DNA from: a virus
Taxonomy: Duplodnaviria; Caudoviricetes
Length of the DNA stretch: 64,000 nucleotides
IMG/VR virus record: IMGVR_UViG_3300032280_000442
Coordinates: 192,001-256,000 of that record
Strand: one strand, 5' to 3'
Positions within the stretch are counted from its first letter, which is position 1. Each line of letters starts with the position of its first letter. Positions 39,580 to 54,628 of this stretch are shown here, piece after piece. The position numbers were made by a program, and so were the translations under genes. The notes beneath the pieces were generated by a model. It had not been told where the DNA came from. It searched no databases and saw only the letters and a program-made list of their open reading frames with translations.

Positions 39580-40620
39580 TTATGTTATTGTGTTACCCCT
39601 CATATAAATATTTTGAGTATCGGTTATCTTGAATATTGTATTAGGGTAAGTTGTATAAACTCTATATGTTATTGGAGGAATTGTTGCTCCGGTATATGTA
39701 AATGTATATGAATTTATTGTACTTTCGGTTCCAACACCCGTTAATAAATTAGGACTATTACTTGTGTTAATATCAATAATTGTCTGTTTCTTATTATTAG
39801 TCAACGAAACAGGTATTATCCAAGTATACCATCCACTACCATTAACATATCCTGCCGGTATTTTTGTTGTTAAGAAATTATAAGCAACAATTGAGTTATT
39901 ATATTGGTCCTCACCACCTGATGTTTGAGGAACAGTTTGTTGTATCAATGATGGGAATAAACCATTTGTCCAACCACTAAAATCAACATACTTATTCATA
40001 TCAATATTAAACTCAGTTTGATTTTGCGTCGGTTGAGAATAATTTGTAAACCCAAAGAAGTTTCTACCACTATTATACATCCATTGACCTATATTTGTTG
40101 AACCTGAAACTGGTTCGATAAATAAATATGCAAAATACGCCGGTGTAGGTGTAGGTGTTGGAGTTTTAGTCATTGTTGGTGTTTGACTTGGTGTGGTTGT
40201 ATTTGTCGGTGTAGGTGTTGGTGCATTAGGTGTTGATGTGTTTGTCGGTGTCTGTGTGTGAGTTGGGGTAATACTTGGTGTTGGCGTTGGTGTAGGGGAA
40301 ACATTACAAGGATTATATGTTGGTGTATTTGTTGGTGTACTTGTCGGTGTCGTTGTGTTTGTTGGAGTTTGAGTCATCGTTGGGGTTGGGGTTGGTGTAG
40401 GAACGGTTACATTCATAATTATTGGACAATCCGCACCCTCAATCAATATGGTATAAACACCATACACATCACGAGGAGGTGTTAATAATGACGGATTAAA
40501 CACATATGGTAATGATTGGTTTCCTAAATTAATAACCGCATTAACATTTACAGGTTTAAACAAAATATTTGCCACCTCACCACTATAATTTACGCTTTGT
40601 ATTGTTATTGTATTTGACAT
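39580..40620 (-). CDS. PT-stalk appendage protein
   Basis: N-terminal domain similar to that of 21801-23759; central (TP)n tract. Confidence 0.75.
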
Positions 40621-40637
40621 ATTTTATTTTTTTATTA

Positions 40638-43600
40638 TTAAGGTATACAATCCATTTCTGTTGTTACGGATTCAACCACACCTGAAGCATTTACATAAAC
40701 CCCATCATAAATAATAGCACCACTATTACATTCCCCATTTCTAAATAACGCACCAAAACCAGGACCATTACACGATACATATGATGTTAATTGTGGATTA
40801 TCATAGAACTGAGTTCCAACTACTATTGAAGGAGATAGTGAGTATACCGTTATTTCATCACAGTTGTATTGATAAGGTAGACAACATCCAAACAAATTAT
40901 ATGTGTAAACAGTTGGTCTTGTCGGTGTTGGTGTTCTTGTCGGTGTTGGAGTTTGTGTTCTCGTAAGTGTTGGTGTATTTGTTGGTGTGGTTGTTGGAGT
41001 TTGTGTTGGTGTTAATGTTGGTGTTCTCGTAAGTGTTGGTGTTGGGGTGTTAGTTGGTGTTGGACAAGCAAACGCGTTAACTGTAGGTGCCGGTAAAACA
41101 CCTAGTTCCGCTAATCCCCACGAGGTTTCCTGATAAGGATATTGTGGTGGAGGTGTAGTGTTACCATAATAATAAGTAGCCTCATCATCAGAGTTATATA
41201 TACTCCACACTGTTATTCCTAAAACTTCTTGAAGAATAATACTAAAAGCATTGTATACGTAGTATGGCCTATTGAATCCATTTAGTGTGTAATTACCAGC
41301 ATATGTGTACGTACCATTCGCCCCAACACTTCCAGCTCCACTAACACATACACTACCTGCAGGTGTTGTAGTTGGCGTAATTGTTGGTGTGCGTGTGAGT
41401 GTTGAAGTGTTTGTTGGTGTTAAAGTATTTGTTGGAGTTAAAGTATTTGTTGGTGTTACACTTGGTGTTGTTGTATTAGTTGGAGTTATAGTGTTTGTAG
41501 GTGTTACACTTGGTGTTGTTGTATTAGTTGGAGTTATAGTGTTTGTAGGTGTTATACTTGGTGTGACTGTATTTGTCGGCGTCACTGATGGTGTTACACT
41601 TGGTGTTGTTGTATTAGTTGGAGTTATAGTGTTTGTAGGTGTTATACTTGGTGTGACTGTATTTGTCGGCGTCACTGATGGTGTTACACTTGGTGTAGGA
41701 GTCACCGTTGGTGTAGGACCATTAATTGTAAATGTAAAATCATCCACAGGACAAAATTCTTCACCACAATCAGGACAATCCGGATTAAACATATTAAAAG
41801 TATCCTTTAATAAATTAAAATTATGTTTAACCTCAGGTGCGGATAATGGTGAGACATACATTCTGAATTGAGATATAGCCCCATCAAATGTTCCTCCAAA
41901 ATTTTGTTCCAATAATATATTTGTGGTTAACCCACTATACATAGTACCAACTAAATCATTTGTTGGTAAAGATTCGGGGTCTTGAATATATGTTGTTCCG
42001 GTTGTTGATGAGAATGTTAAATTTTCTCTTAAACCCTGTGTTCCACCACCCCACGAAATATTAAACGGAACACCAACTTGTTTTTCTTTATCTGTATTTA
42101 AACCTCTTGGAATAATCTCCTCAAAATTCTCTATAGTAAAAAATCTTCTACCATTAATATATATTTTTAGTCTACCTTTTCTATAATGTTTATCAATTAA
42201 CCATTTTTCGTTTAAATCAACTAATTCAACTTCACCCGGTGCTGGATATCCTACTTGAGTGTATGGAGGTGCGATTAATGACATTGAATTGTTAGCTAAT
42301 GATTCTAAAAGTTTTCTTTCAGTTATATCTCCTAATCCTCCACGATACCACAAATCACAAGTATCTAACCAAGTGTATCTTTCCCATACCGCATCAAGTT
42401 GGAACCAATGTTCTTCTTCCAAATACGCAGGATTTACATTCTCACAATAATCATATATTCCTGTTGGAGAACAATACTCAGTTATAGTATATCCTGTTTG
42501 ATAAGTTATCCCACTAGTCTCACAAGACCCTGTTGTAACACAATCACCAGTAAATCTTAATACTTTAACACCTATTGATGGATTATGTGGGTCACCACAT
42601 AATTTAAATGAAATCGCGTTGGATATTGAATCAAATAATGGGTCCGTTTCACAAGTTGATTGGACTGATGATTCACAAGTATGGTTTCTACATTCCCATC
42701 CACAGATATCATTTTCAAATGTTGGGCAACCACAAGATGAACAAACATAAGACGATGAATTACAACCACAAGTATTACAACCATAATTATGATGAGGGTC
42801 GTGGTCACCATTAATACTTCTTGGTGGATAAACATAGATACAACGACTATCTGTTACCCCTGTATTACAACAAGCACAAGTTTCTAACCCAACTAATCCG
42901 GAAGTAACTCGAGTATAAGCGGATATCCCACCCATAAATCCATCCGCGTGATGATAAAATTTATTCTCAGCACGAGTTCCCATATAAAAGAATATATTTT
43001 TATTTTGGGGATAAACAACATTTAATGTTGTTTCACCTGAAGATGGTGAGTATTCGTTATTTTCCGGAAATCTTGGTTTTAATAACATTTCAACAGACCA
43101 TCCTTTATTCATCCTTTCAGGGAATATCTCGTAATCATAACCAAATAACTTGTAAAATCCTTGATAAAATCCACCATATAATTGGTGGATGTTAGTTCCA
43201 CTAATTAAATCATACTGACTAATAACCTCATATAATATGGTTTTATTAAATCCTGTAAATCTAATATTACTACTAGTATATCCTGTAACTTGGAACATTT
43301 TAAATCGTCTATCAAACGATAATCTATCAAACTTAGTAAAATCATTAATCCCATTGGTAAATGTTATTGTTTGTCCGGTCATACCTGTAACCAATCCATT
43401 ATCAATTCCGGTTAAACCAATATCACAAGATGTGTTAGCGGTTAAACAACTTAAATCTAAATTATCAGGATTATAATAGTTTTTAGAAACAAAAACATTA
43501 TTAAAATTGTAATGTTTATAAATTAAAGAATATTGTTGGACAGAACTACTATCGTCAATATCAAAATAAAATGGTAATCTATTACCGTATGTTTGAGCAA

Positions 43601-43730
43601 TAAGATATGGTGAGAAAACAACTTCTTCATTAAAGTTTCTCTCATCGCTAACTAATGACATATCATTAGATTCTAACCCTAATTTTATACCCCAATTTGG
43701 TTTTGGAAATTGATTTATATTTTGACTCAC
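40638..43730 (-). CDS. Large structural protein with LamG/concanavalin-like domain and PT stalks
   Basis: GWSVEMLLK, GRLKIYING, FDGAISQFRMYVSPLSAPEVKHNF; Cys-rich insert; long PT tracts. ORF track start is a GTG. Confidence 0.7.
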   Translation of the reverse strand: MSQNINQFPKPNWGIKLGLESNDMSLVSDERNFNEEVVFSPYLIAQTYGNRLPFYFDIDDSSSVQQYSLIYKHYNFNNVFVSKNYYNPDNLDLSCLTANTSCDIGLTGIDNGLVTGMTGQTITFTNGINDFTKFDRLSFDRRFKMFQVTGYTSSNIRFTGFNKTILYEVISQYDLISGTNIHQLYGGFYQGFYKLFGYDYEIFPERMNKGWSVEMLLKPRFPENNEYSPSSGETTLNVVYPQNKNIFFYMGTRAENKFYHHADGFMGGISAYTRVTSGLVGLETCACCNTGVTDSRCIYVYPPRSINGDHDPHHNYGCNTCGCNSSSYVCSSCGCPTFENDICGWECRNHTCESSVQSTCETDPLFDSISNAISFKLCGDPHNPSIGVKVLRFTGDCVTTGSCETSGITYQTGYTITEYCSPTGIYDYCENVNPAYLEEEHWFQLDAVWERYTWLDTCDLWYRGGLGDITERKLLESLANNSMSLIAPPYTQVGYPAPGEVELVDLNEKWLIDKHYRKGRLKIYINGRRFFTIENFEEIIPRGLNTDKEKQVGVPFNISWGGGTQGLRENLTFSSTTGTTYIQDPESLPTNDLVGTMYSGLTTNILLEQNFGGTFDGAISQFRMYVSPLSAPEVKHNFNLLKDTFNMFNPDCPDCGEEFCPVDDFTFTINGPTPTVTPTPSVTPSVTPTNTVTPSITPTNTITPTNTTTPSVTPSVTPTNTVTPSITPTNTITPTNTTTPSVTPTNTITPTNTTTPSVTPTNTLTPTNTLTPTNTSTLTRTPTITPTTTPAGSVCVSGAGSVGANGTYTYAGNYTLNGFNRPYYVYNAFSIILQEVLGITVWSIYNSDDEATYYYGNTTPPPQYPYQETSWGLAELGVLPAPTVNAFACPTPTNTPTPTLTRTPTLTPTQTPTTTPTNTPTLTRTQTPTPTRTPTPTRPTVYTYNLFGCCLPYQYNCDEITVYSLSPSIVVGTQFYDNPQLTSYVSCNGPGFGALFRNGECNSGAIIYDGVYVNASGVVESVTTEMDCIP
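41453..41696. repeat. Exact 90-nt tandem duplication (30 aa) preceded by a 48-nt partial copy in a PT tract
   Basis: 41501-41590 is identical to 41591-41680; 41453-41500 equals the first 48 nt of the unit. Confidence 0.9.
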
Positions 43731-46444: not shown

Positions 46445-46474
46445 AACCCCTTTCTACCAAGATTGGGGTTTTTT
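46445..46474 (+). terminator. Intrinsic terminator
   Basis: AACCCC...GGGGTT followed by a T-run. Confidence 0.65.
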
Positions 46475-46533
46475 ATTTTAAAATAGTTTCCTTTTGATTA
46501 AACCGGTATATTTATATAATAAAAAATTATGTT

Positions 46534-47448
46534 ATGGATATTAAAACTGAAAAAAAAATTATCTCCGAATATAAAAAGGGAAAAAGTAGTTTAGACATTG
46601 TTAAAATTGTTGGTTTATCAAAACCTACAATCCTTAAAGTATTAAACAAACATAATCTCGTTAGAAAAAGAGATAGATGTTCCACATTAGATATTAAAAA
46701 AGAGGGGGAAAGATATTATATAACTCGTAAATGCCCTAAATGTAATAAAGACATTAAAACAACTTCAAAAGATAAAGTAATTGCGTGTAGGAATTACTTT
46801 AACGCAATTAATAGCCATCATAATTGTGTTAAATGTATGTCAGAATCATTTATTGGGGAGGGAAATCATTTCTTTGGTAAAACACATACCAAAGAAAGTA
46901 TTAAAAAAATGTCTAAAAGTAAAACAGGTCAATATACCGGAGACAAAAACCATATGAAACAAGAAAAATATCGTCAAATGAGTAGAGATATTATGAGGTC
47001 AAATTGGGATAACGGTATTTTAGATAGAAAAGTCATTTCAGAACAAATGAAACAAACTCAGAGAAGTGGTAAAATTAAATCCGGTATAATATCAAAAAGA
47101 GAAAAAGAAATTGTTAAAGAAATAAAACAATTGGGTTATAAACTAATTCATTCATATCGTGTTGATACTAAAATTTGTGATGTATACATACCATCATTAA
47201 ATTTAATTATCGAATATTTTGGTGACTATTGGCATTGTAACCCCAAAAAATACGAATCGGATTTTTTTAATAAAAAAAAGGGTAAGTTTGCTTGGGAATT
47301 ATGGGATTATGATAAAAAGAAACTTGAATTAATCAAAAGTTATGGTTATAATTTAGAAGTTGTGTGGGAGGGTGACCTTAAACTCAACAATAAATTAATA
47401 GAAATCATAATAGAAAACTATGTCACAAAACTCACTTCAACGCCCTAA
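46534..47448 (+). mobile_element. Free-standing homing endonuclease (HTH + Zn ribbon + NUMOD3 + Vsr-like/EDxHD-type nuclease)
   Basis: SLDIVKIVGLSKPTILKVL (HTH), CPKC...CVKC, GEGNHFFGKTHTKESIKKMS (NUMOD3), CDVYIPSLNLIIEYFGDYWH. Confidence 0.8.
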
Positions 47449-48681
47449 CGGTCAAGAAAAGATTAGCGTACTTGTACTGCCATCTGACCGTACGGGCGTT
47501 GGTTAAATCAAGGTAAATTTAGGTCAGTTGACCCCCACGTATTCCTACAAAACCTGTATCCGGATGACTTCCACGTAGATATTGACTACGAACCACAGAT
47601 AAATAATGTCGAATATTGGAAAAAATATCAGATAGTTCACGCTCACAGAACAATTGGGCAAGATTATAATATCGCACCTCAATTAATTGAATGGTTAAAA
47701 TCAATTGGTATTATTGTTATTATTGACCTTGATGATTATTGGTTACCAACTAAGGAACATCCAATACATAATATTATTGTTAAACATAAAATTGATGAGA
47801 AAATTAAGGCAAACTTAAAAGTTGCGTCATATGTAACAACCACTACGGATATTTTTGCAAATGAAATTAAAAAATTAAACAAAAATGTTATTGTATTTCC
47901 AAACGCAATTAATCCAAAAGAATTACAATTTAATCAACCAACACCTCCATCAGATAAAATTAGAGTAGGATGGTTAGGTGGTTCATCTCATTTACACGAC
48001 TTAGAATTACTTGGCGGGTTTGTACAAAAAAATCAAGATATTAACGATAAATTACAATACGTTATTTGTGGGTTCGATACAAGAGGGACTGTTACGGAAA
48101 TTAACCCACAAACAGGAGAAGAAAAACAAAGAGATATTTTACCTCACGAAACAGTGTGGGCTCGTTATGAAGAGATTTTTACCACTAACTATAAGACAAT
48201 CGATGATGACTATAAAAAGTTTTTATTAGAGTTTAAAGAAGGTGAATACAATTCAGGAAATAATTTACCATATGTTCGAGTTTGGACTAAACCTGTTACT
48301 ACTTATGCTATGAATTATTCAAAATTTGATATATCTTTGGCACCAATTAAAAACCATATTTTTAATGTAATGAAATCTCAGTTAAAAGTGATTGAAGCTG
48401 GATTTTATAAAAAAGCGTTAATTGCGTCTGAGATTGGTCCTTATACAATTGATTTAGTTCATTGTTTAAAAAATGGTGAGTTTAATGAAGAAGGTAACGC
48501 TATTCTAATTCCTGAAAATAGAAATCATAGTGATTGGGCTAAATCGATTAAGAAATTGGTTCAAAATCCTGAAATGATTAAAGTATTGGGTGAGAGATTA
48601 TATAATACCGTTAAGGATAAATACGATTTAAATATTGTAACAAAAAATAGAGCAGAATTTTACAAATCTTTAATAAAATAA
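47420..48681 (+). CDS. GT-B (GT4-like) glycosyltransferase interrupted by an 11-nt insert; predicted 416 aa if 47504-47514 is bypassed
   Basis: 47420-47503 encodes MSQNSLQRPNGQEKISVLVLPSDRTGVG then TAA; a second frame is open 47515-48681 (KFRSVDPH...DLDDYW...GWLGGSSHLHDL...FDISLAP...KSQLKVIEAG) with no ATG/GTG/TTG for 213 codons. Confidence 0.8.
47438..47514 (+). other. Candidate ribosomal bypass element: GC-rich hairpin + take-off GGT + TAA + landing GGT
   Basis: CAACGCCC (47438-45) pairs with GGGCGTTG (47494-501); ACGGTCA (47448-54) pairs with TGACCGT (47485-91); GGT 47501-03, TAA 47504-06, GGT 47512-14. Confidence 0.6.
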
Positions 48682-48683
48682 AA

Positions 48684-49385
48684 ATGATAAAAATACCTTT
48701 AAGTAAAATATTGTTTCTTGATATTGAAACAGTAGGTGGTTGTAAAAATTATACCGAGTGTCAAGTTAGTAATCCAAATGTTGCAAAACAATTTGAGAAA
48801 TATTTCGATTGGTTCCAAAAAAGATTTCCGGAAGATGCCGGTTTTTCTACCGATAAGGTTTTTGAAAAAAGAGCTGCATTAGTTCCGGAGTTTGCAAAAA
48901 TTGTTTGTGTTAGTGTCGCATTTGTTATGGACAACGGTGATATTAAAAAACAATCATTTTCAGGTGACGATGAAAAATCATTATTAAAAGAATGTCAATC
49001 ATTACTTAATCGTTGTGGTAAATTAGATTTTTATCTATGTGGTCACAATCTTAAGAATTTTGATATTCCAATGTTGGCAAAAAGAATGATTATAAATGGA
49101 TTAATGCCCCCATCAATCTTACCGTCATATGATACTAAGCCGTGGGAGATTAAAGCTATTGATACCAAAGAAATTTGGCAGTACGGAGCCTACACAGCAA
49201 TTGGGTCATTAGACCTAATGTGTTCTTGTATGGATGTCCCTTCACCAAAGGAAGGTGATGTTACCGGAGATAAAGTTCACGACGCATATTGGAATAAAAA
49301 TATGTTACCTGAAATCACAGCTTATTGCGAACGTGATGTATTGGTATTGATTGACGTAATAAAAAAATTAAAAGAATTAGAATAA
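48684..49385 (+). CDS. Stand-alone DnaQ-like 3'-5' exonuclease (PolB-exo type)
   Basis: LFLDIETV, GHNLKNFDIP, YCERDV. Confidence 0.85.
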   Translation: MIKIPLSKILFLDIETVGGCKNYTECQVSNPNVAKQFEKYFDWFQKRFPEDAGFSTDKVFEKRAALVPEFAKIVCVSVAFVMDNGDIKKQSFSGDDEKSLLKECQSLLNRCGKLDFYLCGHNLKNFDIPMLAKRMIINGLMPPSILPSYDTKPWEIKAIDTKEIWQYGAYTAIGSLDLMCSCMDVPSPKEGDVTGDKVHDAYWNKNMLPEITAYCERDVLVLIDVIKKLKELE

Positions 49386-49987
49386 TGGATAATTTTGACG
49401 AATTAGCAAAATTAAGAGATAGATTGCTTAATTTACAAGAAACTTTTTCATCTGAAACTGGTGAGATAAATTATGATGACATTTTAAATGAAATGGATGT
49501 TGATTTAAAACAAATTGAAGAAAATATTGTTGAAAATAACACTAAATTAGATTTACCTTATCAAATACTTCATCCGGACACAATCCATCCAAAATACAAT
49601 TACGATAGTGACTCAGGATTTGATTTACATTCAACAGAAGAGGTTACTATACCCCCATTTGGTAGAGCATTAGTTCCAAGTGGGTTAGCCTTTGATATTA
49701 GAGATGGTTTTGAAATTCAAGTAAGAACAAAAAGTGGTTTAGCTATCAATCAAGGTCTTATGGTTTTAAACTCACCGGGAACCGTAGATAATGGATACAC
49801 AGGAGAAGTTAAAGGAATTATATTCAACACAAACCCTACTGAGGTGACAATCCCAAAAGGTATGAAATTTGGTCAAGCAGTTTTATGTCCTGTTGTAAAT
49901 GGTGCTTGGGTTGATTTAAATCAAGTTGCAAAAATAAATAAAAAAGAACGAGGAGCTAACGGATTTGGTTCTACAGGTATATTATGA
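49385..49987 (+). CDS. dut: Trimeric dUTPase with N-terminal extension
   Basis: SGFDL, RTKSGLA, NSPGTVDNGYTGE, GQAV, RGANGFGSTG. Confidence 0.92.
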   Translation: MDNFDELAKLRDRLLNLQETFSSETGEINYDDILNEMDVDLKQIEENIVENNTKLDLPYQILHPDTIHPKYNYDSDSGFDLHSTEEVTIPPFGRALVPSGLAFDIRDGFEIQVRTKSGLAINQGLMVLNSPGTVDNGYTGEVKGIIFNTNPTEVTIPKGMKFGQAVLCPVVNGAWVDLNQVAKINKKERGANGFGSTGIL

Positions 49988-51378
49988 TTACAATAGTTTA
50001 CTCAACACATAAAGACGAAACTTATAATAACAAATTTAAACAACATTTGTTACAAACTGTTGGTTTAAAAAATGTTCAAATTTTAGAATACACAAACTAC
50101 AATCAATATAGTTTAACTGAAGTTTATAATAAAGGTTTAAACGAATCGGTTAATGATATTGTTGTATTTTGTCATAACGACATTATTTTTGAAAAAGAAT
50201 ATTGGGGTAAACGAGTTTTAGAACATTTTGTTAAAAAACCTGAATATGGTATATTAGGTGTTGCCGGGACATCATATTACCCTAGTTCTGGAAGATGGTG
50301 GGACATACAGGGTGAGATGATTGGTCAAGTTTATCACCAACACGAAGGTAGAAAATGGTTATCTGAATATAATAAACCATTTGGTAATAAAGTAATTGAT
50401 TCTATCATTGTTGATGGACTTTTCTTTGCGGTTAAAAAAAGTAATTTAAAAACTAATTTTGACGAATCATTTACCGGATTTCATTTTTATGATACTTCAT
50501 TTTGTATGAGTAATCATTTATTAGGCGTTAAAATTGGGACAATTTCAAATGTTGCATTAACACATCTTTCTATTGGTATGACTAATAATCAATGGGAACA
50601 GAATCGATTATTATTTTTAGAAAAATACAAAGAAAGTTTACCTATTAAATTAGAATCAAAATACCCTATAAGTAAAATTAATCCAAAATTACCTTTGGTT
50701 TCTATAATAATACCAATTTATAATTATGGGGTTCAATTTGAAAAGGCGTTACAATCAGTATTTAACTCTACTTACAAAAACATAGAGATTGTTATTGTCG
50801 ATGATGGGTCTACAAACACTTATGTTAAATTAAAATTAGATAGTATTAAAGACCATCCAAATGTTAAAATTATTCATCAAGAAAATCAAGGACCTTCTTC
50901 TGCAAGAAATAATGGAATTAAAAATTCTAATGGTGATTTAATATTACCATTAGATGCCGATGATATGGTTCAACCTGACTATATCCAATTATGTGTTAAC
51001 ATATTGAAAAACAATAAAAATATAAGTCCGGTTTATTGTGATACTCATCATATTGGGCAAACTCAAGGTATTGAGGTAAGACCTGAATGGTCATTAGAAA
51101 GATTAAATAAAGGACCATTTATTGTTAATTGTTCTATGTTTCACAGAGAGGCATTTGATAAATGTGACGGATATGATGTCGAATTAAAAGGGTGGGAAGA
51201 TTATGATTTATGGCTTAGAATGGGGATTAACGGATATGTAGGTAAAAGAATACCTAAACCTTTATTTATATATTTTCATCACGAAATTGATGGAACGGTA
51301 TCTTCTGAAGCTAACGTTAATCAAATTGAATTACACCAAAAAATATTAAACAAAAACTATAGTAATGAAATTATTTGA
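49984..51378 (+). CDS. Two-domain GT2-family glycosyltransferase
   Basis: VFCHNDI...VDGLFFA...FHFYD; second domain VSIIIPIYN, VDDGS, GPSSARNNGI, LDADD, WEDYDLWLR. Confidence 0.85.
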   Translation: MITIVYSTHKDETYNNKFKQHLLQTVGLKNVQILEYTNYNQYSLTEVYNKGLNESVNDIVVFCHNDIIFEKEYWGKRVLEHFVKKPEYGILGVAGTSYYPSSGRWWDIQGEMIGQVYHQHEGRKWLSEYNKPFGNKVIDSIIVDGLFFAVKKSNLKTNFDESFTGFHFYDTSFCMSNHLLGVKIGTISNVALTHLSIGMTNNQWEQNRLLFLEKYKESLPIKLESKYPISKINPKLPLVSIIIPIYNYGVQFEKALQSVFNSTYKNIEIVIVDDGSTNTYVKLKLDSIKDHPNVKIIHQENQGPSSARNNGIKNSNGDLILPLDADDMVQPDYIQLCVNILKNNKNISPVYCDTHHIGQTQGIEVRPEWSLERLNKGPFIVNCSMFHREAFDKCDGYDVELKGWEDYDLWLRMGINGYVGKRIPKPLFIYFHHEIDGTVSSEANVNQIELHQKILNKNYSNEII

Positions 51379-51994
51379 AAAATTTGACAAAGTATATTGT
51401 ATTAATTTAGACCGAAGACCGGATAGATTAGAAAATTTTACTAAAGAAGTCGAGAAACATAACTTAGGTGAATTTGAAAGATTTTCAGCATATGACGGTA
51501 AACAATTAAATTTAACTAATGAACATAATTTAAAACCAGGTGAGATTGGTGTAATAAAATCTAATTTAGATATTATTAAAAACGCAAAGAAAAATAATTA
51601 TAAGACCATTTTAATTATTGAGGACGATTGTGTGTTCAATGATGAGATTGTTAATTTTGAAGATTATTTTAATCAACTACCTAATGATTGGGATATGATA
51701 TATATGGGAGGTAATCACAATACTCATATGGGAGTTAATCCTCCTCAACAAATTAACGATAAAGTTGTAAAATTACACTCAACATACTCAGCACATTTTA
51801 TTGGGATTAAATCGTCTGTATTTGACCACATAGAAGTTTTATTAGAAAGAGGTCAACAACCGTTAGACGTTGAATACGTTAAATTACAAAAAATATTTAA
51901 TTGTTATTCTTTTACTCCAGCATTAACAAGTCAATTAGTTAATTTTTCAGATATTCAGGAATCAACAACAGATTATAACTGGTTAATAAAATAA
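51365..51994 (+). CDS. GT25-family glycosyltransferase
   Basis: YCINLDRRPDR, ERFSAYDG, GEIG, LIIEDD, WDMIYMG. Confidence 0.85.
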   Translation: MKLFEKFDKVYCINLDRRPDRLENFTKEVEKHNLGEFERFSAYDGKQLNLTNEHNLKPGEIGVIKSNLDIIKNAKKNNYKTILIIEDDCVFNDEIVNFEDYFNQLPNDWDMIYMGGNHNTHMGVNPPQQINDKVVKLHSTYSAHFIGIKSSVFDHIEVLLERGQQPLDVEYVKLQKIFNCYSFTPALTSQLVNFSDIQESTTDYNWLIK

Positions 51995-51995
51995 T

Positions 51996-52814
51996 ATGTC
52001 AGAAATAATATCAACAGCTTATTTAATGGGGGGACTTGGGAATCAAATGTTCCAAATGTCTCACGCATTATGTCAAGGTTGGAAAAATAATATCCCGACT
52101 AAATTTAGACCGTCATCGTATACTCCGATGCAAGCCAATCAACCAACAAAATATTTAGACAATATTTTCAGAAATGTTGAATTTACTAATGATATACCTG
52201 AGACAATACGAATTGAGTCAGGTTGGGGATATACACCACTTAATCCTTCTTGGTATACGTCTATAGAATTTTTTGGTTATTTTCAGAGTAATAAAAACTT
52301 TTTAGGTTATGATGAAAAAATAAAAGAATTATTCCAACCAACAGAGGAGTTCATCAATAAAGTAAAATCATTATATCCAGAAATTAATAATGATGGAACG
52401 TTATCTGTACACATTAGAAGAGGTGATTACACAACAATAAGTCACGTTCTTCCTGTTATAGATAAAACATATATCGATGAAGCAATCAGACAAAATGGTG
52501 ATTACTCAACGTTATTTATTTTTTCAGATGACGTTGATTGGATAAAACAAAATCTATCATATCCAAATCAAATTATTGTTACTGAATTAGAAGATTATGA
52601 AGAACTATGGCTTATGTCGTTATGTAAAAATAACATAATGTCAAACTCAACATTTTCTTGGTGGGGAGCGTTTTTAAATAATAACATAAATAAAAAAGTA
52701 TACACTCCAAGCCTTTGGTTTGGGCCTGCCGGAGAATATAATTTCCAAGACATATATTTAGATTCTTGGACAAAAATAAACGTAACCTATTCCGAAGGAA
52801 AATTAATTTTTTAA
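51996..52814 (+). CDS. GT11 alpha-1,2-fucosyl/colitosyltransferase
   Basis: GGLGNQMFQ, GYFQS, HIRRGDY, FSDD, NSTFSWWGA. Confidence 0.9.
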   Translation: MSEIISTAYLMGGLGNQMFQMSHALCQGWKNNIPTKFRPSSYTPMQANQPTKYLDNIFRNVEFTNDIPETIRIESGWGYTPLNPSWYTSIEFFGYFQSNKNFLGYDEKIKELFQPTEEFINKVKSLYPEINNDGTLSVHIRRGDYTTISHVLPVIDKTYIDEAIRQNGDYSTLFIFSDDVDWIKQNLSYPNQIIVTELEDYEELWLMSLCKNNIMSNSTFSWWGAFLNNNINKKVYTPSLWFGPAGEYNFQDIYLDSWTKINVTYSEGKLIF

Positions 52815-52817
52815 AAT

Positions 52818-53582
52818 ATGAATTATTTACAAGGACAAAAATTTAGAGAAATATACGATAACAATAAAATTTACTATTGTGATACACACGATGTAAATTC
52901 ATTTTTTGATAATATTAATTTTACACACGATTTTGTGTTGGTATCACACAACAGTGATGGTAATATAACAGATAACCCTATTAGACATTATGACGCTGAT
53001 GTTAAAAAAATCCCTAAAAATTTAAAAAAATGGTTTGGACAAAATCTTAATTACGAATCAGAGATTATTGAGTCATTACCTATTGGTTTAGAAAATTCAC
53101 AATGGTTTCCGGAAACAAGAAAAATTGAGAAGTTATTTAACATTAATTCAACACCAAAAAATATTAAAAATTTGGTTTATTTAAATTTAAACATATTAAA
53201 TAATCCGGGTGTTAGACAACCAATTTATGATATGTTAAACGATAAACCATATGTCACAACACAATATGGTAGAAATGGTTTGGGTTATGATGAATATCTT
53301 GATAACGTATACAACCATAAGTTTATGATTTGTCCTGAAGGTAATGGGATTGATGTCCACCAGCCTTGGGAATCTTTATACGTTAACACAATTCCAATTC
53401 AAAAGAAAAATATTAATAACAGTAATTGGAGGGAATTACCAATTTGTTGGTTAGATGATTGGGAACAATTAACTGATGAAAATTTTTTAATATCAGAATA
53501 TAAAAGAATATCTGAAACAAAATTTGATTTATCTAAATTAGATTTTGATTATTGGAAGAATAAAATACAAAATTCCATATGA
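52818..53582 (+). CDS. Exostosin/GT47-like glycosyltransferase
   Basis: LPIGLEN, KFMICPEGNGIDVHQPWESLY. Confidence 0.6.
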   Translation: MNYLQGQKFREIYDNNKIYYCDTHDVNSFFDNINFTHDFVLVSHNSDGNITDNPIRHYDADVKKIPKNLKKWFGQNLNYESEIIESLPIGLENSQWFPETRKIEKLFNINSTPKNIKNLVYLNLNILNNPGVRQPIYDMLNDKPYVTTQYGRNGLGYDEYLDNVYNHKFMICPEGNGIDVHQPWESLYVNTIPIQKKNINNSNWRELPICWLDDWEQLTDENFLISEYKRISETKFDLSKLDFDYWKNKIQNSI

Positions 53583-54628
53583 AAATAATAGTAATTGGTG
53601 CCGGTATTTTTGGTATTACAACGGCACTAACATTATCCGAAAATGGGTATGATGTGACATTAGTAGAATGTGAAAATGATATAATGACTAAAGCCAGTAA
53701 ATGTAACCACAATAGATTACATTTTGGGTTTCATTATCCAAGAAGTATTAAAACTGCAAAACAAAGTTTAGACGGATATGATTTATTTTATAATAATTTT
53801 TCAAATTCAGTATTAACTAATTTTCCAAATTATTATTTAATTGAGAAAAATGGTAAAATATCCGGTGATGAGTTTAAACTATTTTGCGATGAATTAGACA
53901 TATATTACAAAGAATCATCTCCCAATAATATTGAAGTGGATATGAGTAATATTACTTTATCAACAATAACTAATGAACCAATATTTGATTTTGAATCTAT
54001 TAAAATCGATTTATCAGAAAGATTAAAAAATTCAAAAGTTAGTCTAATTTTAAATAAAACAATAACGTCTGTTTCAGACTTATCCGGGTTTGATGTCGTT
54101 ATTAATACAACATATCGTAATATTAATAAAATTAATGAGTTGTTCAATATCGAACCCATAAAGTTAAAATTACAAGATGTTATTGTCCCAATATTTAAAA
54201 TGAATTCTGATAAGATTGGTTTAACAATTATGGATGGTGAGTATTGTACTATTATGCCAAAAGGGTTTGAAACGAATACTTTTTTATTATACCACGTAAA
54301 ACACTCGGTTCTTAAACAAATTGAGGATTATGTGATTCCAAATAATTGGGTTAATAATGACCCGGAGTATATTAATAACAAAATAAATGAAATATACGAA
54401 TCTTCAAAAACTTACTACCCATTCTTAAAAGATTGTGAGAAAATATCATATTGGAGAACAGTTAGAGCATTACCAATTAATGATGACGATGAACGTTTAA
54501 GTACGTTAACTCTTAATAACGTTGGTGATAAAAAAATAATAACATTATTGTCAGGTAAAATAACAACTTGTTGGTTAATGTCTGAAAAAATATTAAAAAT
54601 ATTAAATGAAAACACTACTAATAGGTAA
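53579..54628 (+). CDS. FAD-dependent oxidoreductase
   Basis: IGAGIFG, ASKCNHNRLHFGFHYPRS, SGKIT. Confidence 0.8.
   Translation: MKIIVIGAGIFGITTALTLSENGYDVTLVECENDIMTKASKCNHNRLHFGFHYPRSIKTAKQSLDGYDLFYNNFSNSVLTNFPNYYLIEKNGKISGDEFKLFCDELDIYYKESSPNNIEVDMSNITLSTITNEPIFDFESIKIDLSERLKNSKVSLILNKTITSVSDLSGFDVVINTTYRNINKINELFNIEPIKLKLQDVIVPIFKMNSDKIGLTIMDGEYCTIMPKGFETNTFLLYHVKHSVLKQIEDYVIPNNWVNNDPEYINNKINEIYESSKTYYPFLKDCEKISYWRTVRALPINDDDERLSTLTLNNVGDKKIITLLSGKITTCWLMSEKILKILNENTTNR

Follow-up and report, generated by a model that had tools for sequence, protein, structure and literature searches.

The locus studied here raises the question of how a phage glycosyltransferase (GT) gene can be used when its reading frame closes after 28 codons. 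In the window, a 64,000-nucleotide stretch of phage DNA, codon 28 (the take-off codon) is followed by a short segment, the gap, which begins with a stop codon and ends with a landing codon matching the take-off codon. The rest of the GT gene continues from there. An endonuclease gene overlaps the GT start, and an earlier note on this DNA had proposed that endonuclease and insert form a mobile cassette comparable to mobA/gene 60 of phage T4, the insert disrupting the endonuclease target and a recoding signal rescuing the host gene. To our knowledge, T4 gene 60 and its homologues are the only established cases of programmed bypassing in phages, and shorter natural counterparts have long been expected. 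From comparison of sequences and predicted structures, we favor a homing cassette whose gap would be decoded by a ribosomal hop and would add to immunity against the nuclease, and we give this explanation as a whole a probability of about 0.78. The features on which it is built are listed in Table 1; every coordinate in the earlier note proved correct on direct re-reading of the sequence.

Table 1. Features of the endonuclease-GT junction (positions in the window)
Feature	Position	Strand	Remarks
Terminator-like hairpin and U tract of the upstream gene	46445-46478	+	Present in empty and occupied alleles
Whole mobile element (~1 kb)	46488-47514 (5' edge approximate)	+	Empty and occupied alleles part just after the terminator; similarity resumes at the landing codon
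TATTTATA motif, putative late promoter of the endonuclease	46509-46516	+	Upstream of 51 of 262 ORFs
Free-standing homing-type endonuclease ORF	46534-47448	+	304 aa
Sigma70-type promoter sequence (TTGAAT-17-TATAAT) within the endonuclease 3' end	47324-47352	+	Fixed synonymous sites
GT 5' ORF	47420-47503	+	28 codons; last codon is the take-off GGT (47501-47503)
Long RNA hairpin	47437-47502 (arms 47437-47454 and 47485-47502)	+	-27.3 kcal/mol, z -4.7
Wobble base -7, candidate nuclease-immunity position	47497	+	C in the window
Coding gap, 11 nt	47504-47514	+	Stop TAA, 5-nt spacer, matched landing codon GGT (47512-47514)
Rest of the GT-B (GT4-like) glycosyltransferase	47515-48681	+	388 codons

The window is part of a complete 308,574-bp virus record, a T4-like jumbo phage carrying a T4-type major capsid gene. 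Its genome encodes 19 tRNAs and leaves the Shine-Dalgarno sequence nearly unused (3 of 218 genes). A gene for ribosomal protein bS21 is also present (G000:C1:272389-272547). Since Bacteroidetes are the predicted hosts of freshwater bS21 phages in this size range (PMC9723584), the host here is likely a member of the Bacteroidota.

The endonuclease consists of an N-terminal HTH, CxxC zinc motifs, and NUMOD3 (PF07460; E, 3e-8), followed by a C-terminal Vsr-like (EDxHD-type) nuclease domain. Its top Foldseek match was I-Bth0305I (3r3p; E, 8.4e-4), and the fold of the nuclease domain resembled both Vsr (1cw0; Z, 11.9; rmsd, 2.9; 113 aligned) and 3r3p (Z, 10.9; rmsd, 2.8; 97 aligned). I-Bth0305I was missed when the nuclease domain was searched by sequence against the PDB and was recovered by fold comparison alone. 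Residues E190, D216, E227, D231, W233, H234, and D260 are invariant, and four of them (E190, D216, H234, and D260) are candidates for the catalytic Glu/Asp/His/Asp set. ORF, domain, and fold matches all agree with the description of a free-standing NUMOD3/Vsr-like endonuclease overlapping the GT start (ATG at 47420) by 29 nt. An N-terminal NUMOD/HTH part joined to a C-terminal Vsr-fold nuclease is also the layout of I-Bth0305I and other Vsr-like (EDxHD) enzymes, and, as described for fractured genes, the 3' overlap provides the start codon of the downstream gene (PMC3239194, PMC2677866). Unlike I-Bth0305I, the window enzyme comes with no intron or intein, contains NUMOD3 and zinc motifs, and shares about 22% identity in the catalytic domain.

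The GT 5' ORF is composed of an element-borne extension of about 10 codons and the element's own copy of the first host codons; it is 89 to 100% identical among close cassettes and 64 to 75% identical to empty alleles. An intact GT allele matched phrog_7162 (E, 3e-42), and its predicted model matched the GT-B enzymes GlgM, MshA, and BshA (E, ~1e-12 to 1e-11). The closest homologue in cultured phages reached only 34% identity, and the four full-length matches from the genome collection were all gap free. The GT body shows a pN/pS of 0.17, a low value that partly predates the arrival of the cassette.

In the window, the gap reads GGT-TAA-5 nt-GGT. The identical 11-nt gap was found in two other metagenome contigs (L245 and L281) with differing flanks, ruling out an assembly slip, and a genome-wide scan for a second site with the same anatomy returned the window junction alone. 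We retrieved 257 loci, representing 124 distinct junction contexts; because part of the gap alleles were retrieved with search patterns that favor gaps, these locus counts are not population frequencies. A gap was present in 45 of the 124 contexts, in all cases at the same codon. Every length from 5 to 13 nt occurred, in all three frames, and one gap measured 44 nt (L192). In 21 of the 22 gap types, the first codon is a stop (TAA, TGA, or TAG), the exception being L192, which has GCT and then TAA. Likewise, the landing codon specifies the same residue as the take-off codon in 21 of the 22 types (15 Gly/Gly and 6 Ser/Ser), with the third bases free. Five Ser alleles were retrieved by nuclease queries and not by the Ser pattern. 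Three alleles land on GGA from a take-off GGT or GGC, and in the short matched gaps no matched codon precedes the landing codon. The residues differ in a single allele, L132 (take-off AGT, landing GGC), for which first-position wobble is possible.

These gaps could be plain damage, which would inactivate the GT or leave it in two pieces through re-initiation. We regard this as very improbable: an ATG does lie 10 codons past the landing codon in many relatives, but the downstream part of the window GT has no ATG, GTG, or TTG for 213 codons, and L091 and L093 have none for more than 160. Furthermore, the break falls in the loop that connects strand 1 to helix 1 and would sever strand 1 of the GT-B fold, no further stop or other disruption was seen in the GT of the 45 gap alleles, even where the nuclease has decayed, and the covarying hairpin described below would be left unexplained together with the matched codons. 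Decoding by RNA-level excision, stop readthrough, or -1/+1 frameshifting is also unlikely, if less so. Readthrough would suffice for the 26 of 45 gap alleles that are in frame (6, 9, and 12 nt), and the landing frame of the window is open from 47488, where a -1 shift could join the frames. Against this, all three frames occur at one site, so no single frameshift or readthrough event accounts for the gaps. All three stop codons are used, and take-off and landing codons switch together from Gly to Ser while their third bases may differ. There is no slippery heptamer, gaps of 5 nt are too short for a ribozyme, and Rfam gave no match near the gathering score at the junction. Re-pairing of the tRNA, on the other hand, would explain all gap types but that of L132. 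Stops, matched codons, and use of three frames form the comparative signature of a ribosomal hop, in agreement with the proposal of a recoding signal, and we find it very probable that the gap is crossed in this way.

The 44-nt gap of L192 is of T4 size. It contains a C-rich/G-rich hairpin of high stability (-24 kcal/mol) that encloses decoy GGN codons, and its landing codon is GGT; the nuclease of this allele is a remnant. Three further matches to a 44-nt pattern (L286, L288, and L290) turned out to be unrelated genes. Regarding codon choice, GGC and AGC are rare in the genome (60 and 79 uses), yet they are common as take-off codons and are then always followed by TGA, and a take-off GGT is mostly paired with TAA.

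Directly upstream of the gap, the RNA is predicted to form a long hairpin whose 3' end lies in the take-off codon. Per-sequence folding anchored on the 3' arm gave energies of -22.8 to -35.4 kcal/mol for 38 distinct cassette alleles, compared with -1.5 to -14.7 kcal/mol for 72 others, and all 38 folded at z scores of -2.2 to -7.1. Compensatory changes were observed, with four pair types at position -7 and six at position -10. RNAalifold on a MAFFT alignment returned no consensus structure because the 5' arm of the hairpin shifts register between lineages. We consider the hairpin a conserved candidate stimulatory mRNA structure. When 12 nt behind the P site are modeled as hidden, the folding energy drops from -6.1 to -23.1 kcal/mol along the 11-nt hop of the window, and most of the hairpin energy would be freed within the next 15 nt. 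These energetics fit a model in which pairing of the exiting mRNA drives the ribosome forward during bypassing (10.1101/2024.12.09.627546). Downstream of the gap, barrier hairpins were not enriched (median, -4.1 versus -5.0).

The earlier note had also placed the endonuclease stop at the internal loop of this hairpin, 55 nt ahead of the gap, so that the endonuclease 3' end would supply the 5' arm. This is right for the window, where the first two bases of the TAA (47446-47448) fall within a 2x2 internal loop. A stop in the loop is confined to the window's own sub-lineage, and we rejected it as a conserved design. In other cassettes the nuclease stop ends 16 to 91 nt ahead of the take-off end and, depending on the lineage, falls before, within, or after the 5' arm. 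Because the stop varies around the arm in this manner, the arm belongs to the element-borne extension, and its overlap with the endonuclease 3' end holds for the window sub-lineage only.

In occupied alleles, the element takes the place of the host promoter and of about 18 codons at the GT start. The terminator just upstream, which the consensus scanner did not call, is host sequence immediately outside the element. Mismatch to the nearest empty allele is 0.31 to 0.39 before the junction and 0.15 over the next 15 nt, and then falls to background. The gap is thus located at the 3' boundary of the replaced tract. The position of this boundary at the junction also lends indirect support to the putative cleavage of the element-free allele by the window nuclease beside the insertion site.

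Two promoters appear to be carried by the element. The TATTTATA motif recurs genome-wide at a spacing of mostly 10 to 13 or 19 to 30 nt, and 44 of 52 intact endonuclease genes have TATTTAT close to their start, making the motif a probable late promoter of the endonuclease. The second one lies within the endonuclease 3' end and follows the pattern TTGA-nn-17-TATAAT. Its synonymous sites are invariant across all 33 distinct alleles examined, which are related and do not count as independent. CTT is used at 8 of 8 Leu codons there, compared with 13% genome-wide, and five nuclease deletions or replacements left this stretch intact. The promoter type lost to the element is TTGATA-17/18-TATATT. The internal sequence most likely serves the GT operon as a substitute promoter, and a probable replacement promoter of sigma70 type within a nuclease 3' end is new here.

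The distribution among relatives speaks strongly for joint inheritance of these parts. All 45 gap alleles have a 26- to 29-aa N terminus (the extension) and the hairpin, which is found in 0 of the 79 gap-free alleles. The gap-bearing contexts comprise 33 with an intact nuclease, 10 with a broken or partial one, and 2 without; the gap-free contexts comprise 53 without a nuclease, 19 with an intact one, 4 with a cut or broken one, and 3 not classed. On the nuclease-domain tree (105 columns), gap state changes 2 times, against a shuffled mean of 17.3; on the GT tree it changes 29 times (34.9 when shuffled), at least 23 of them forced by the starred branches, counts that cannot separate gain from loss. 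A single clade of gap-bearing GTs was rejected (p-AU, 3.7e-7), and independent pairs linked nuclease and gap in 12.7 same versus 0.1 opposite cases (p, 2.4e-4). L038 shares 100% identity with the window across the extension tract and 93% across the C-terminal half of the nuclease, compared with 77 to 79% for the flanking genes, and this step in identity points to transfer of the cassette. In addition, L271 (gap) and L018 (no gap) are 99.5% identical downstream, and the GTs of L253 (gap) and L254 (no gap) are near-identical. Because the gap tracks the endonuclease tree and not the GT tree, there is good support for co-mobility, and the cassette formed by endonuclease, extension, hairpin, and gap almost certainly moves as a unit.

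All gap alleles have the extension, and a nuclease, intact or as a remnant, accompanies 43 of the 45, whereas 19 intact nucleases at the site lack a gap. The gap-free enzymes form separate clades; a clade of 16 that branches within the gap-linked nucleases, together with 5 outgroup rows, occupies the same site with no gap, extension, or hairpin. The gap is not present wherever this nuclease family occupies the site; it is bound to certain nuclease lineages. Two gap-free alleles with long N termini (L208 and L216) were dismissed as carriers of the extension, being upstream-ATG artefacts without a hairpin.

Hairpin and gap remain after deletion of the nuclease. In L255 and L271 (1111-1770 in both), a 220-aa ORF replaces the Vsr-like nuclease, while hairpin, gap, and a promoter remnant stay in place. 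This ORF gave a weak HNH match below the cutoff (E, 0.019). It has its own terminator-like hairpin and was found in two host lineages and at no other retrieved locus. Short nucleases of 252 to 253 aa are encoded by L011, L012, L246, and L254. Their nuclease domain is that of the gap-free clade and their N-terminal half is close to that of the window enzyme (82 to 83% at the DNA level in L011 and L246), which suggests that they arose by domain swapping. In L011 and L012, the junction Gly is replaced by Ser (TCG).

The cassette has much in common with mobA/gene 60 (Manning & Atkins, 10.1101/2022.08.31.505936). In both, an element of about 1 kb carries a free-standing nuclease that overlaps an element-borne N-terminal extension out of frame, together with a copy of host codons, and the gap lies at an invariant Gly, with a stop after the take-off codon and a matched or wobble-matched landing codon. 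Both elements end at or just past the landing site, both have spread repeatedly among close relatives, and in both the nuclease decays or is replaced while the bypass is kept. The host genes differ, a topoisomerase II large subunit there and a GT-B glycosyltransferase here, and because the insertion lies at the gene start, there is no split ORF or C-terminal extension, unlike in gene 60. Gaps measure 5 to 13 nt (once 44) instead of the 20 to 50 nt of gene-60-type elements, in-frame hops are common, and Ser serves as take-off besides Gly. Moreover, all of the strong conserved structure is found on the 5' side of the stop, and the nascent peptide is just 26 to 29 aa long. The take-off stem-loop of the gene 60 type is not conserved: it amounts to 0 kcal/mol in most 5- to 6-nt gaps, to -0.5 to -6 kcal/mol in 7- to 13-nt gaps (-4.5 in the window), and to -24 kcal/mol in L192. 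A mini Shine-Dalgarno 5 to 7 nt before the landing codon is absent from the window and from all gaps of at least 10 nt. Finally, the nuclease here has a gap-free sister clade; of MobA, by contrast, all phages that carry it are reported to have the gene 60 bypass.

The other host gene, the much shorter gaps, and the lack of a split ORF, a take-off stem-loop, and a mini Shine-Dalgarno lead us to conclude that the GT cassette works like a mobA/gene 60 element without being a member of that group. Judged by these differences, its origin is likely independent. The earlier note had stressed the different nuclease family; the Vsr fold does differ from the HNH fold of MobA, but since GIY-YIG and Vsr-type nucleases (the latter in clade 11 of that study) replacing MobA are already reported in gene-60-type cassettes (10.1101/2022.08.31.505936), the nuclease family alone is not new.

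Similarities extend to synthetic stop-hops (Weiss 1987; PMC5009743), which are also short and have matched codons and a slow A-site codon, and our 6-nt alleles correspond to the "9 nt for one amino acid" stop-hop (PMC5009743). Unlike these, the present hops would be natural and conserved and are accompanied by a dedicated hairpin and a nuclease. The byps of Magnusiomyces are mitochondrial and 27 to 55 nt long, as opposed to 5 to 13 nt (once 44) in phage here, and the review in question, which also covers the Streptomyces phage Hau3 candidate, knew of no natural in-frame stop-hop in 2016 (PMC5009743). No report of this GT hop was found in a literature search covering mostly papers free of subscription. 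We think it likely, with somewhat more reserve than for the hop itself, that these alleles represent an independently evolved and widespread family of 5- to 13-nt hops, including in-frame stop-hops, which would be driven mainly by the zippering of a single upstream hairpin, unaided by a take-off stem-loop or a Shine-Dalgarno sequence, and spread by a homing endonuclease that rebuilds promoter and start of the host gene as well. Such a family would offer a graded natural series (5 to 13 and 44 nt; Gly and Ser) on a single scaffold, and the model of exiting-mRNA pairing becomes testable in a 100-nt cassette. If true, invasion of a conserved coding site by a nuclease plus a bypass arose more than once. 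Gap-bearing GT genes also get mis-annotated as truncated.

We propose that, in co-infecting phages, the Vsr-like homing endonuclease would cut empty GT alleles at their 5' end and that repair would copy in the ~1-kb element, deleting the host promoter and first codons. With the element would come a late promoter driving the nuclease, an early-type promoter that takes the place of the lost one ahead of the GT, a new GT start codon, an extension whose RNA would pair with the next host codons, and the stop-containing gap. Ribosomes would arrive at the take-off Gly codon and then pause at the stop.

The least certain step is the role of the gap in protection from the nuclease. Our reading is that the gap probably adds to immunity, jointly with substitutions in the replaced tract; that it is needed for immunity has about an even chance. 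Alternatively, cassette and hop could be real and immunity could come from the tract substitutions, chiefly loss of T at position -7, leaving the gap as a hitch-hiker at the cut boundary or as a translational attenuator of the GT. We hold this to be a serious alternative, albeit with somewhat less than even odds. T occupies position -7 in 76% of 52 empty alleles, in 1 of 34 cassette alleles, and in 0 of 18 gap-free endonuclease alleles, and 67 of the 68 alleles with a nuclease or gap (among the 124 contexts) avoid it. On the nuclease tree this position changes 7 times among A, C, and G and never to T, although GGT makes up 56% of Gly codons, and independent pairs gave 6 to 0 (median p, 0.03). 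Because both nuclease-bearing kinds replace the same tract, with the same boundary, and avoid T at -7, the substitution may itself give immunity. The persistence of the gap after nuclease loss points the same way. On the other hand, the one exception, L281, is an intact cassette with T at -7, consistent with protection by the gap, and in gap alleles this base also pairs in the hairpin. The gap-free nucleases form a clade of their own, whose specificity may differ. In addition, nicking by MobA is reportedly blocked by the insert and not by tract polymorphisms alone, as summarized in 10.1101/2022.08.31.505936. No allele keeping the extension and losing the gap after nuclease decay was seen among the relatives; a purely protective, costly gap might predict such alleles. 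The gap-free sister nucleases at the same site provide a natural control for the purpose of the gap.

The surroundings of the GT gene vary between relatives. An ORF of 149 to 151 aa with an FTAGNF motif lies between the GT and an exonuclease gene in L009, L026 to L031, and L034, and is not found in the window. In L142 and L143, a related nuclease is divergent to a GT homologue on the opposite strand, about 370 nt apart. In the window, the minus strand at 39580-43730 encodes two proteins (346 and 1,030 aa) with long Thr-Pro repeat tracts, near the glycosyltransferase cluster at 47420-54628, and these proteins are possible glycosylation substrates.
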